From a phage: a stretch of DNA of 64,000 nt. Each line of letters opens with the position of its first letter. Positions within the stretch are counted from its first letter, which is position 1. The notes under the pieces are model-generated. The model did not search any database and was not told where the DNA came from. It saw only the letters and a program-made list of their open reading frames with translations. Shown here piece after piece: positions 53,701 to 64,000 of the stretch. The DNA is taken from the sequence record PZ445437.1. The stretch is one strand, 5' to 3'. The translations under genes were made by a program, and so were the position numbers.

Positions 53701-53708
53701 TATAAATA
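53701..53708 (+). promoter_or_regulatory. late promoter TATAAATA upstream of gene 34
   Basis: exact motif 35 nt upstream of ATG 53743. Confidence 0.6.
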
Positions 53709-57620: not shown

Positions 57621-58736
57621 ATGGAAAAATTTATGGCAGAGTTTGGACAAGGATATGTCCAAACTCCATTTTTATCGGAAAGCAATTCAGTAAGATACAA
57701 AATAAGTATAGCGGGTTCTTGCCCGCTTTCTACTGCAGGACCATATGTTAAATTTCAGGATAATCCTGTAGGAAATCAAACATTTAGCGCAGGTCTTCAT
57801 TTAAGAGTTTTTGACCCTTTCACAGGAGCATTAGTTGATAGTAAGTCATATGCTTTTTCGACTTCAAATGATACTACATCAGCTGCTTTTGTTAGTTTCA
57901 TGAATTCTTTGACGAATAATCGAATTGTTGCTATATTAACTAACGGAAAGGTTAATTTTCCTCCTGAAGTAGTATCTTGGTTAAGAACCGCCGGAACGTC
58001 TGCCTTTCCATCTGATTCTATATTGTCAAGATTTGACGTATCATATGCTGCTTTTTATACTTCTTCTAAAAGAGCTATTGCATTAGAGCATGTTAAACTG
58101 AGTAATAGAAAAAGCACAGATGATTATCAAACTATTTTAGATGTTGTATTTGACAGTTTAGAAGACGTCGGAGCTACCGGATTTCCAAGAAGAACGTATG
58201 AAAGTGTTGAGCAATTTATGTCGGCAGTCGGTGGAACTAATAACGAAATTGCGAGATTGCCAACTTCAGCTGCTATAAGTAAATTATCTGATTATAATTT
58301 AATTCCTGGTGATGTTCTTTATCTTAAAGCACAGCTATATGCTGATGCTGATTTACTTGCTCTTGGAACTACGAATATATCCATTCGATTTTATAATGCA
58401 TCTAATGGATATATTTCCTCGACACAAGCTGAGTTTACTGGGCAAGCTGGGTCATGGGAATTAAAGGAAGATTATGTAGTTGTTCCAGAAAACGCAGTAG
58501 GATTTACGATATATGCACAAAGAACTGCGCAAGCTGGCCAAGGTGGCATGAGAAATTTAAGCTTTTCTGAAGTATCAAGAAACGGCGGTATTTCAAAACC
58601 TGCTGAATTTGGCGTCAATGGTATTCGTGTTAATTATATCTGTGAATCTGCTTCACCTCCGGATATAATGGTACTTCCTACGCAAGCATCGTCTAAAGCT
58701 GGTAAAGTGTTTGGACAAGAATTTAGAGAAGTTTAA
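57621..58736 (+). CDS. 35: long tail fibre hinge connector gp35
   Basis: 371-aa ORF at gene 35 position. Confidence 0.9.
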   Translation: MEKFMAEFGQGYVQTPFLSESNSVRYKISIAGSCPLSTAGPYVKFQDNPVGNQTFSAGLHLRVFDPFTGALVDSKSYAFSTSNDTTSAAFVSFMNSLTNNRIVAILTNGKVNFPPEVVSWLRTAGTSAFPSDSILSRFDVSYAAFYTSSKRAIALEHVKLSNRKSTDDYQTILDVVFDSLEDVGATGFPRRTYESVEQFMSAVGGTNNEIARLPTSAAISKLSDYNLIPGDVLYLKAQLYADADLLALGTTNISIRFYNASNGYISSTQAEFTGQAGSWELKEDYVVVPENAVGFTIYAQRTAQAGQGGMRNLSFSEVSRNGGISKPAEFGVNGIRVNYICESASPPDIMVLPTQASSKAGKVFGQEFREV

Positions 58737-58743
58737 ATTGAGG

Positions 58744-58769
58744 GAGCCTTCGGGTTCCCTTTTTCTTTA
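58744..58769 (+). terminator. rho-independent terminator after gene 35
   Basis: GGGAGCC-TTCG-GGTTCCC hairpin + TTTTTCTTT. Confidence 0.7.
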
Positions 58770-58777
58770 TAAATACT
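58770..58777 (+). promoter_or_regulatory. late promoter TATAAATA upstream of gene 36
   Basis: exact motif 22 nt upstream of ATG 58799. Confidence 0.6.
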
Positions 58778-59472: not shown

Positions 59473-62400
59473 ATGGCTACTTTAAAACAAATACAATTTA
59501 AAAGAAGCAAAACCGCAGGTGCACGTCCTGCTGCTTCAGTATTAGCCGAAGGTGAATTGGCTATAAACTTAAAAGATAGAACAATTTTTACTAAAGATGA
59601 TACAGGAAATATCATTGATCTAGGTATTGCTAAAGGCGGTCAAATTGATGGAAATGTAACTATTGATGGAACTTTACGCGTCAATGGACCAATAAACAAC
59701 TTTGGAAATTTTTCTACAAGTGGTACTATTACGGCAAGTAATATTGTTTCTGCTACAGTATTCAGATCAACATCTGGTTCATTTTATACAAGAGCAATAA
59801 ATGATACTGCAAATGCCCATCTTTGGTTTGAAAATACAAATGGCTCAGAACGTGGCGTTTTATATTCAAAACCGCAGTCTGAAAATGAAGGCGTAATTAC
59901 AATGCGTGTTCGTCAAGGAACCGCTGCGGGAGCTCAAAATTCAGAATTTCATTTCATTTCTACTGATGGCGGTATCTTCCAGGCACGCAAGCTAACTGCT
60001 TTAACTTCTATTAGTACACCAACTATTAGTGTTAATTTAATTAATCATGATTCTAAATCATTTGGACAATACGATTCACAGTCTTTGGTTAACTATGTTT
60101 ATCCTGGAACCGGTGAAACAAATGGTGTAAACTATCTTCGTAAAGTTCGCGCTAAGTCCGGTGGTACAATTTATCATGAAATTGTTACTGCCCAAACAGG
60201 CCTGGCTGATGAAGTTTCTTGGTGGACTGGTAATACACCATTATTTAAACTATACGGTATTCGTAACGACGGCAGAATGATTATCCGCAATAGCTTGGCC
60301 ATTGGTACTGTGACGCAAGGGTTTCCGTCAAGCGATTATGGCAATGTTGGGGCACTAGGAAATATATTTCTTGCTTTAGGTGATAATGGAACTGGTCTAG
60401 TTTATAGAAAAACCGGGGTATTTGATTTCGTTGGTTCTGGTTTATCTTTGGCATCTATTACTCCTGATAGTTTCCGTAGTACCCGTAAAGCGATTTTTGG
60501 TCGTTCCGAGGACCAAGGTACAACATGGATTATGCCTGGAACGAACGCTGCATTTTTATCAGTTCAAACACAAGCTGATACTAACACTGCTGGCGACGGC
60601 CAGACGCATATTGGCTATAACTCAGGCGGAAAAATGAACCACTATTTCCGTGGTAAAGGCAAAACTAATATTAATACCCAAGAAGGCATGGAAGTTAACC
60701 CGGGTATTCTTAAACTAGTGACTGGCTCTAATAATGTAATGTTTTATGCTGATGGCGGTATTACATCTGTTAAGCAGCTTTCAATATATAACGGCATATA
60801 TTTAGCAGCTAATAATTCTACTGCTGGGCTAACATTCGCTCCAACTACTACAGTTGATGGCACTAAGCAAATTTTGTGGGAAGGTGGTACTCGTGCTGGG
60901 CAGAATAAAAGCTATGTAACTGTTAAAGCATGGGGTAATTCATTTAACGCATCTGGCGATCGTTCCCGTGAAACGGTTTTTGAAGTATCAGATGGGCAAG
61001 GTTACCATTTTTATTCTCAGCGAGTTGCTCCCGGATCAGGTTCTACTGTCGGACCTATTCAATTTCGAGTTAATGGTGGTTTATTAACTTCAGGTAGTAT
61101 TGTTGCTTCTGGTTCTATTACAACTGAATCTTCTTTAAATGTTAATAATGGATTGTCTGTAAATGGACAAGCTAAATTTGGTGGAACAGCAAACGCATTG
61201 AGAATTTGGAACGCCGAATATGGCGCTATTTTCCGTCGTTCAGAAAGTAATTTTTATATTATTCCAACCAATCAAAATGAAGGCGAAAGTGGAGACATTC
61301 ACAGCTCTTTAAGACCTGTGAGAATAGGATTAAGCGATGGCATGGTTGGGTTAGGAAGAGATTCTTTTATAGTAGATCAAAATAATGCTTTAACTACTAT
61401 AAACAGTAACTCTCGCATTAATGCCAACTTTAGAATGCAATTGGGGAAGTCGACATATATTGATGCAGAATGCACTGATGCCGTTAGACCCGCAGGGGCT
61501 GGTTCATTTGCTTCGCAAAATAATGAAAACGTCCGTGCTCCGTTCTATATGAATATTAATCGCACAGATACAAGTACTTACGTTCCAATTGTTAAACAGA
61601 GATACGTACAAAATAATAGTTGCTATTCTATTGGTACTTTAATTAATGGCGGTAATTTTAGAGTTCATTATCATGAAGGTGGTGATGGCGGTTCTACTGG
61701 CGCGATTATAAAGGATTTAGGTTGGGAATTTAATAAAAATGGTGATTTTTACTCTCCTGGTAAATTAGGTGCTGGAAATATTCGTATCGGAACAGACGGT
61801 AATATCACGGGTGGTTCTGGTAATTTTGCTAACTTGAATACCACATTAAACCGTAAGGTCAATTCCGGATTTGTAACATACGGTGCAACTGCTGGATGGT
61901 ATAAATTCGCTACAGTAACGATGCCACAATCTACTTCTACTGTTTCATTTACTATAACTGGTGGTAAAGGATTTAATACCGGACTGTTTACACAGTGTGC
62001 TATAACAGAAATTGTTCTTCGTACTGGCAATGACCGCCCAGCAGGTTTAAACGCCGTGATGTATACCAGAACAGCTGCAGGTCTTACTGATATTGCTGTA
62101 GTTAATACCTCAGGAAATACATATGATATCTATGTTGAATCGGGTACTTATGCCAACCAATTAGCTTATACTTGGCATACAGTTGATAATGCTACCGTAG
62201 AAGTTATCGGCGCTTTTGGTCCTACTCAAAACCCAGTAGATTCTTTGCCGGTTGATTATGTTAAAGGTCAAGTAGCTAACATGCTTAACAACCTGGTAGA
62301 CACTGGTAAAGTAAAACGCTATGTAGCAGAGTCGGAAATTGCTATTAATAACCCAACTGGTATTCGTATTACGAGTAATTCTGATAGATCAGGTTCTAAT

Positions 62401-63411
62401 TCCGTTTTATTTCGAAATGACGGTGGAAGCTTCTATATTTTACTGACCGACAAAAACTCTTCAGACGGCGATAATAAAGCAACTGAAGGTGATTGGAATG
62501 GAAAACGACCATTTTCAATTGATATGACTGCTGGTACTGTTCGTCTTGGCGAAAATACTTCTTTTGGTAAAGATGTTACTATTGATGGAAGCATTAATTC
62601 ACGAGTTAAAGTTGTCGGACAGTGGAATGTTAGCTTTTCTGATATTTCAGATGTGACTCGTGACCGTTCTGCATTTTTAGTGAATACGGGTGGCATTTCC
62701 AAGACAAGTCAATCTTATTACCCGCTATTTTCTGGATACAGTTTTTTAACTGACGCAGGTTATCGACAATCGTTTGAATTTGGATGGTTAGGTGTTTCTG
62801 GTACTTGGCGTCAAGGCATTATTCGCATGCGTGGTGACAACCCATCGGGGCAACAGGCTCGTTGGACTTTTGATATGGACGGAACATTTTATGCTCCTAT
62901 ACTATCATGCGGATCTGCGAGAGCATTCGGTGTCAATGCATCAAATGGTCTCGGTGGAAACAGTATAACATTTGGTGATAGCGATACTGGTATTAAGCAA
63001 AATGGCGATGGATTATTAGACATATATGCGAACAGCGTACAAGTGTTCCGTTTCCAAAACGGTGATTTGTACTCATACAAAAATATAAATGCTCCAAACG
63101 TTTATATTCGTTCTGATATTCGTTTAAAATCCAACTTCAAACCTATCGAAAATGCACTTGATAAAGTTGAAAAACTTAACGGTGTCATTTACGATAAAGC
63201 TGAATACATCGGTGGAGAGGCAATTGAAACTGAAGCTGGTATTATAGCTCAAACGTTACAAGACGTTTTACCAGAAGCTGTCCGTGAAACAGAAGACAGT
63301 AAGGGTAATAAAATACTCACTGTTTCTTCTCAAGCCCAGATTGCTCTTCTAGTTGAAGCTGTGAAAACACTTTCTTCTCGTGTAAAAGAACTTGAATCTA
63401 AACTTATGTAA
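59473..63411 (+). CDS. 37: long tail fibre distal subunit gp37, T2-type with C-terminal intramolecular chaperone domain
   Basis: 1312-aa ORF; N-terminus [39 protein letters not shown] as gp37; C-terminal ~110 aa resemble autoproteolytic chaperone domains of other phage fibres. Confidence 0.93.
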
Positions 63412-63441
63412 AGGAGGGCTTCGGCCCTCTAAGGATTTTTA

Positions 63442-64000
63442 ATGGCAATTGTAGGTGTTCCTGGCTGGATTGGTGAATCTGCCGTGAATGAAACTGGACA
63501 ACGCTGGATGGACGCTGCGATGAAAGCTGTTCGTGTTTCAGTTCCCGGTTGGATGAGTTCAATGGCTGGGCAATCTAAAGAAGTATATTATAGCGTTGGT
63601 GCTAGCAATTCTTACAATAAAGACACACTAATAAATTGGATAAAAGCCCAAGGCAGTACTCCTGTTGTTATTACTATTACAGGAAATATTGTTTCTCAAT
63701 CTACTGGTGTTCCATGCTTAGATTTTCCTAGCTCATTAACTAATGCATATGTTACCTTAAATATTAATAGTGGGGTTCATGTATTAGGTCGGGGAGGAAA
63801 TGGCGGAAGTAACTCTGCTGGCGGAGCAGGAGGAACTGCAATAAATAACGGAATTGGAACTCGTTTAAGAATAAACAATAATGGTATTATTGGTGGCGGC
63901 GGAGGTGGCGGCGCTGGTGCTAGATACCATCCTTTCCCTCAAATGGATATGATATTTGGTGGCGGCGGAGGTCGTCCATTTGGCGCAGCTGGCGCAGCAG
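63442..64000 (+). CDS. 38: tail fibre adhesin gp38 (T2-type, glycine-rich motifs), truncated by window end
   Basis: MAIVGVPGWIGESAVNETGQRWMDAAMKA... followed by GRGGNGGSNSAGGAGG and GGGGGGGAGA glycine runs; runs to window end. Confidence 0.88.
   Translation, partial: MAIVGVPGWIGESAVNETGQRWMDAAMKAVRVSVPGWMSSMAGQSKEVYYSVGASNSYNKDTLINWIKAQGSTPVVITITGNIVSQSTGVPCLDFPSSLTNAYVTLNINSGVHVLGRGGNGGSNSAGGAGGTAINNGIGTRLRINNNGIIGGGGGGGAGARYHPFPQMDMIFGGGGGRPFGAAGAA

Follow-up and report, generated by a model that had tools for sequence, protein, structure and literature searches.

Homology-based assignment of a T2/T6-type long tail fibre tip in a Tequatrovirus phage and prediction of its receptor

Fibre tips of T-even phages and the locus under study

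The structural template for fibre tips of the kind described here is the complex of phage S16 (genus Gelderlandvirus, host Salmonella; PDB entry 6F45), in which a trimeric gp37 tip, parted from its chaperone by a cut at S^SDRRIKK, carries one gp38 that is docked by three tryptophans and built as a polyglycine-II sandwich with variable loops (PMC6851490, PMC7917993). The tryptophans are the prongs which enter the pockets of gp37 (PMC6851490, PMC7917993), while the cut itself falls between two serines, removes 113 residues and is the only event by which the docking surface is uncovered (PMC7917993). A site of the same type, DVYIR^SDGRLKI, has been inferred for T4-like phages of Yersinia (PMC7917993). 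In T2, according to Drexler et al. 1986 as cited in PMC3157838, gp37 is also C-terminally processed and capped by gp38. T2 uses FadL as receptor and T6 is the classical Tsx phage (PMC3157838); AV114 and AV115 (OR352944, OR352945), which belong to Mosigvirus, a genus other than that of the phage studied here, were found to recognise Tsx by means of receptor-deletion mutants (PMC10844046). T4 has the same locus and gene order as the present phage, but its gp37 of 1026 aa, a length given correctly in the earlier note and confirmed in the T4 RefSeq record, has its own receptor-binding tip and is without an S74 domain, and its gp38, of 183 aa in that record, is an assembly chaperone unrelated to the gp38 described below. 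The authors of the S16 structure regard T4 as the rarer type among T-even phages (PMC6851490), and the abstract of Trojet et al. likewise presents it as the less common one (PMC3157838). This is in accordance with our tblastn search, in which relatives of the gp38 studied here were found in 761 phage records and the T4-type gp38 in 297.

The window analysed, i.e. the whole stretch of 64,000 nt from record PZ445437.1, contains the genes g34-g35-g36-g37-g38 in this order. In the relatives Geo, T2, T6, S16 and AV114 the holin gene t lies 3' of g38, which places it beyond the window end here. g38 itself is incomplete, since the window ends at its codon 186; the truncation is not a property of the phage. 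On the minus strand of 63090-64000 there is no ORF of at least 60 aa. The nearest relative is Escherichia phage vB_Eco_Geo (Geo), with 99.9% DNA identity over 62400-64000, and a dozen other Tequatrovirus records are 90-98% identical over this part, with labels such as "long tail fiber distal subunit" and "receptor recognizing protein". The backbone (30000-54000) is that of Tequatrovirus as well, with a best identity to any record of 96.7%. By homology, the locus very probably represents the distal part of a Tequatrovirus long-tail-fibre operon with a fibre tip of the T2/T6 type, and the sequence itself holds nothing against this model. Features are collected in Table 1.

The earlier note, made from the letters alone, had described a T2-type receptor-recognition module on a T4-like backbone. 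The T2-type tip is indeed present; the combination is not a special one, because T2 itself is a Tequatrovirus and a T2-type tip is the majority state in T-even phages (PMC6851490, PMC3157838). The arrangement is the standard, common and well-studied tip of T2/T6-like coliphages, with nothing new in it: architecture, processing, structure and receptor logic are all already published, and this fibre tip raises no new biological question. Its value is a routine one, namely that the host range of this phage is to be read from gp38 and not from the gp37 tip.

Table 1. Features of the long-tail-fibre locus, with DNA identity to T2 and to AV114 (Mosigvirus) where segments were compared
Feature	Position in window	Strand	Identity to T2	Identity to AV114	Remarks
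T4 late-promoter consensus TATAAATA	53701-53708	+			42 nt upstream of g34
T4 late-promoter consensus TATAAATA	58768-58775	+			31 nt upstream of g36
Gene 37	59473-63411	+			1312 aa, long tail fibre distal subunit
gp37 aa 466-671, paralogue of the gp34 C-terminal trimerisation domain	60868-61485	+			Pfam Gp34_trimer, E 2.2e-10
gp37 upstream of the exchanged block	62400-62924		49.5%	38%	
gp37 distal tip, aa 1152-1213	62926-63111	+	97.3%	90%	aligns to S16 gp37 tip (6F45_A); identities over 62925-63111
Predicted autocleavage site R1213^S1214, YIR^SDIRLK	63109-63114	+			aligns with S16 NVS^SDRRIKK
Intramolecular chaperone/autoprotease domain	63112-63411	+	98.0%	97%	gp37 aa 1214-1312, 99 aa, plus stop codon
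Intergenic spacer g37/g38	63412-63441	+	96.7%	96.7%	30 nt
Intergenic hairpin GGAGGGC-UUCG-GCCCUCU, then T-run	63413-63430	+			between g37 stop and g38 start
g38 ORF	from ATG 63442 (not 63443)	+			open for 186 codons, then window end
gp38 aa 1-115, N-terminal attachment domain	63442-63786	+	73.3%	95%	Pfam Gp38_N and start of GP38; W9, W22, W37
gp38 aa 116-186, start of glycine-rich specificity domain	63787-64000	+	60.3%	100%	cut by window end

The C-terminal domain of gp37 and its predicted cleavage

The first 844 residues of gp37 are homologous to T4 gp37 (69% identity) and the remainder is T2-like. A gp37 of the same length, 1312 aa, is also found in Kha5h, JLBYU24, Geo, JK1, T-01 and Kelasse, while that of T2 (MH751506), which has the same architecture and gene order, is 1341 aa long and only 65% identical overall. 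In the Kha5h record (KT184312 / NC_054905) an "attP; prophage attachment site (type 2851)" is annotated inside gene 37, an odd label for a virulent T-even phage.

The proposal that this protein ends in an autoproteolytic intramolecular chaperone is well borne out. Pfam Peptidase_S74 ("chaperone of endosialidase", PF13884) matches aa 1214-1271 with 59.2 bits (cutoff 22 bits) and E 4.9e-16, over its full length (profile positions 1-58 of 58). The motif SDIRLK starts at aa 1214 (codon 63112), a few residues into the C-terminal peptide quoted in the earlier note, which begins at aa ~1206. The S-D-x-R-x-K motif is whole, with S1214, R1217 and K1219 and a Ser-x4-Lys spacing; it is identical in T2 gp37, aligns column for column with S16 and also aligns to its counterpart in MYRF. 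It is known that in such domains the serine and the lysine five residues downstream form a catalytic dyad, the arginine stabilises the oxyanion, and the geometry of the dyad is attained only after trimerisation (PMC3742443). From the alignment with S16 and the correspondence of Ser, Lys and Arg, cleavage at R1213^S1214 with release of a fragment of 99 aa is predicted, in comparison with the 113 residues shed by S16. The preceding segment, aa 1152-1213, would then form the C-terminal end of the processed protein, on which gp38 docks.

Searches of structures and protein families give a similar picture. The S16 tip-plus-chaperone chain 6F45_A matches the gp37 C-terminus with E 2.7e-12 and ~32% identity, and the tail fibre 8JOV matches the chaperone domain with E 1e-6. 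The ICA domain of MYRF (7DC3) was found with E 8.8e-4 from the single sequence and 2.2e-9 with a profile. S16 gp37, MYRF and 8JOV were the only matches of this PDB sequence search (phmmer, four-sequence profile), with no endosialidase and no T5 fibre chaperone among them, so the link to the endosialidase chaperones is that made by Pfam. The domain shares with the endosialidase type and the MYRF ICA the Ser-x4-Lys with an Arg between and its place at the very C-terminal end of a fibre trimer (PMC3742443), but here it sits on the shaft of a T-even long tail fibre and not on a sialidase tailspike. Of the 33 PHROG families found with the gp37 C-terminus nearly all are tail fibre families, and the match falls at the C-terminal extreme of their profiles, which fits a portable C-terminal chaperone module.

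It is conceivable that the domain is a degenerate, non-cleaving relic which is kept in the mature fibre, with gp38 bound elsewhere. Cleavage in this phage is a prediction from homologues, and the model of the chaperone domain, made with AlphaFold2 from a single sequence, is poor, with a mean pLDDT of 58.7 that is too low for a fold search. However, the full-length Peptidase_S74 match, the intact Ser, Arg and Lys of the motif, the 98% DNA identity to the domain of T2, whose gp37 is reported as processed in the work cited in PMC3157838, and a docking surface that in S16 opens by cleavage only (PMC7917993) make such a relic very unlikely. We therefore keep to a cleaved gp37 as the probable mature form.

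The adhesin gp38 and its predicted receptor

The gene which follows g37 was said to encode an adhesin of the T2/T6 type and not a T4-type chaperone, and all matches agree with this. Pfam Gp38_N (PF21721) is found with 66.3 bits and E 2.4e-18, GP38 ("phage tail fibre adhesin Gp38", PF05268) with 177.2 bits and E 5.5e-52 (cutoff 25 bits for both), and PHROG 2056 with E 1.2e-81. In its 186 residues the window copy does not differ from the gp38 of Geo, which has 263 aa; the full Geo protein is matched over residues 8-261 by S16 gp38 (6F45_D, E 1.1e-48; 44-51% identity), and the GFP-gp38 fusion 9V85 matches gp38 with E 7e-32. W9, W22 and W37 are unchanged across the alignment with T2, T6 and S16. 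The domain assignments and the cleavage motif are established for this locus, as are its homologies and its identity with alleles already characterised.

In some records the orthologue does bear the name "tail assembly protein" or "distal long tail fiber assembly catalyst", which could be taken to mean that gp38 is merely a T4-like assembly chaperone outside the virion and that the gp37 tip binds the receptor. These labels are a legacy of annotation taken over from T4. T4 gp38 and the gp38 studied here gave no meaningful alignment in BLASTP (E 13), the present protein matches in full both the adhesin family and the tip-bound S16 adhesin of known structure, and the homology of gp37 to T4 stops at aa ~844, so that the T4 C-terminal receptor-binding region is missing. 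A chaperone role of this kind is extremely improbable, and gp38 is treated in the following as a tip-bound adhesin.

Both glycine runs quoted in the earlier note can be located, aa 116-131 being GRGGNGGSNSAGGAGG and aa 151-160 GGGGGGGAGA, and a third run lies within the window at 173-177+RPFG. Between them, aa 132-150 are moderately conserved and aa 160-172, ARYHPFPQMDMIF, are variable; the borders of these segments are our own and were drawn from alignments. The other glycine motifs and two more variable segments belong to the remaining 77 codons and are seen in relatives (Geo) only. The Pfam E-values given above for Peptidase_S74, GP38 and Gp38_N show that the peptides quoted in the earlier note are not chance matches of low complexity.

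The label "T2-type" is adequate for the architecture and for the attachment domain, which is 74% identical to T2 and 46% to T6. It is not adequate for specificity, since the variable segments are closer to T6: identity across these segments is 38-53% to T6 and 7-28% to T2, and at aa 160-172 it is 53% to T6 and 7% to T2. In this last segment YHPFPQMDMIF corresponds to YSPFPQMRLTF of T6 gp38 (MH550421), a protein which has the same family and glycine-run scaffold; the gp37 of T6, by contrast, is 994 aa long, its tip is of another kind and its chaperone domain reaches only 56% DNA identity. The variable segments of T2 gp38 are unrelated to those found here, and T2 uses FadL where Tsx is predicted for the present phage.

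The idea that the hypervariable loops of gp38 set the host range is supported by homology, through a specificity domain which is the same as that of Tsx-dependent AV114 and AV115 (PMC10844046). The gp38 of these two phages is 98.9% identical to that of Geo, with differences only at 48, 49 and 52, which all belong to the attachment domain; from residue 53 to 263 there is no difference. As the Geo, AV114 and AV115 specificity domains are identical and AV114 and AV115 depend on Tsx, we consider Tsx the probable receptor of the present phage, with the last 77 codons taken as equal to those of Geo. Because the variable segments are just 38-53% identical to T6, it is the experiments with AV114 and AV115, and not the likeness to T6, which carry this prediction.

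The same T2-type module could be directed at OmpA, FadL or OmpF instead, or at Tsx together with LPS as a co-receptor. The part of g38 with the last variable segments lies beyond the window, and small changes in later variable segments may switch such adhesins to OmpA (PMC10844046, PMC3157838): the adhesin of AV108 resembles that of AV114 and yet uses OmpA, which its authors attribute to differences in HVS3/HVS4 (PMC10844046), and in T6-like adhesins changes at a few residues are enough for a switch between Tsx and OmpA (PMC3157838). Moreover, the present attachment domain is like that of FadL-using T2. Against this stand the 99.9% DNA identity to Geo as far as the window end, the identity of Geo gp38 to the two Tsx-dependent proteins over residues 53-263, and the visible variable segment at aa 160-172 with its likeness to T6 and not to T2. 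We therefore regard a receptor other than Tsx alone as rather unlikely, and Tsx remains the preferred prediction. It is checkable and can be of use in the design of phage cocktails or in host-range engineering.

Cleavage of gp37, the presence of gp38 in the virion, its stoichiometry and the receptor are modelled on homologues in the following proposal. gp37 would be produced as a precursor of 1312 aa, in which the last 99 residues, the Peptidase_S74-type chaperone, would aid the folding of three chains into a trimeric beta-helical tip. After trimerisation the Ser1214/Lys1219 dyad would cleave the R1213-S1214 bond, by which the chaperone would be freed. The hydrophobic tip uncovered in this way would take up one gp38 via the three tryptophans of its N-terminal domain (W9/W22/W37). 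The C-terminal domain of gp38 would form from its glycine runs a polyglycine-II helix lattice, which would present the variable loops to an outer-membrane protein, for this allele presumably the nucleoside channel Tsx.

Transcription, exchange of the tip and domains shared between fibre genes

On the plus strand of the fibre locus the late-promoter consensus TATAAATA occurs only at 53701 and 58768, with none upstream of g38; across the window there are 18 matches where 8.8 are expected. The presence of the consensus before g36 and its lack before g38 suggest that g36-g37-g38 probably form one late transcript, with the site before g36 as the promoter. A promoter for g38 only was considered and rejected: there is no TATAAATA upstream of it, and the sigma-70-like matches are at background level and irrelevant for late genes. 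The GC-rich hairpin between g37 and g38 is conserved, a single change apart, in T2 and AV114, occurs as a variant in T6 and is labelled a terminator in the records G50 and NR1. Its folding energy is no better than that of shuffled sequences (z -1.26), and it is retained here as a feature because of its conservation and its annotation in relatives only; attenuation or stabilisation of the transcript at this point is possible. In the whole 64 kb no Rfam family reached the gathering score and no tRNA gene was found, therefore the nrd/td region, unlike that of T4, appears to be without recognisable group I introns.

Identity to T2 and AV114 changes abruptly along the end of the locus (Table 1). 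Within g38, identity to T2 is 92-98% up to ~63550 and then ~60%, and DNA identity to T2 is 92-100% across the gp37 tip, the chaperone domain, the hairpin and the initial ~36 codons of g38. In AV114 and AV115, the stretch from ~62950 on is 95-100% DNA-identical to the present phage, and the part of gp37 ahead of aa ~1152 is unrelated in DNA (38%). Many phage records match a query of 62400-64000 only from query position ~526-551 on, i.e. they have the same left border. The sharp step in identity and this common border lead us to conclude that the gp37 tip, the chaperone and gp38 move as a unit, which in the window comprises ~62950-64000 with its left bound near gp37 aa 1152. The 90-100% identity of the cassette (62926-64000) to AV114/AV115 indicates horizontal exchange between the genera Tequatrovirus and Mosigvirus. 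The start of the cassette at gp37 aa ~1152 is also a handy junction for adhesin swaps. Tentatively, the combination of a T2-like attachment domain with Tsx-specific loops could be a second, partly independent solution for binding Tsx, which spreads horizontally as a unit from gp37 aa ~1152; for the most part this reading is already found in the work on the AV phages and in Trojet et al.

Within gp37, identity to Geo is just 44-84% at aa ~250-550 (window 60220-61120), as against 98-100% elsewhere in the protein. On the basis of this comparison the segment is a second mosaic patch, situated inside the fibre shaft.

The earlier note had also pointed to a block shared by gp34 and gp37 as a likely substrate for recombination. 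Both peptides which it quoted are present, though listed in reverse order: WGNQFGGGSDTTRSTVFEV belongs to gp34 (aa 971) and its counterpart of 19 letters to gp37 (aa 487). The latter lies in a domain of gp37 which is matched by the gp34 crystal structures 4UXE/5NXF with E ~2e-17, and is 32% identical over 210 aa to the window's own gp34 in BLASTP. At the DNA level no similarity could be detected. A blastn comparison of genes 34 and 37 with word size 7 gave nothing significant, in the 57-nt core of the block 31/57 bases (54%) are identical, the longest exact word common to the two genes is 13 nt and is located elsewhere, and the repeat search found no repeat pair at the positions of the block. 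A role as substrate for homologous recombination is therefore rejected on the strength of the empty blastn result and the 31/57 bases, and the block, with Gp34_trimer in both proteins, is an old paralogy of domains at the protein level. In the neighbouring fibre hinge gp35 (57621-58736), Pfam ILEI ("Interleukin-like EMT inducer", PF15711) matches aa 58-127 with 34.8 bits (cutoff 27), an unexpected domain label for a hinge protein of a phage fibre.
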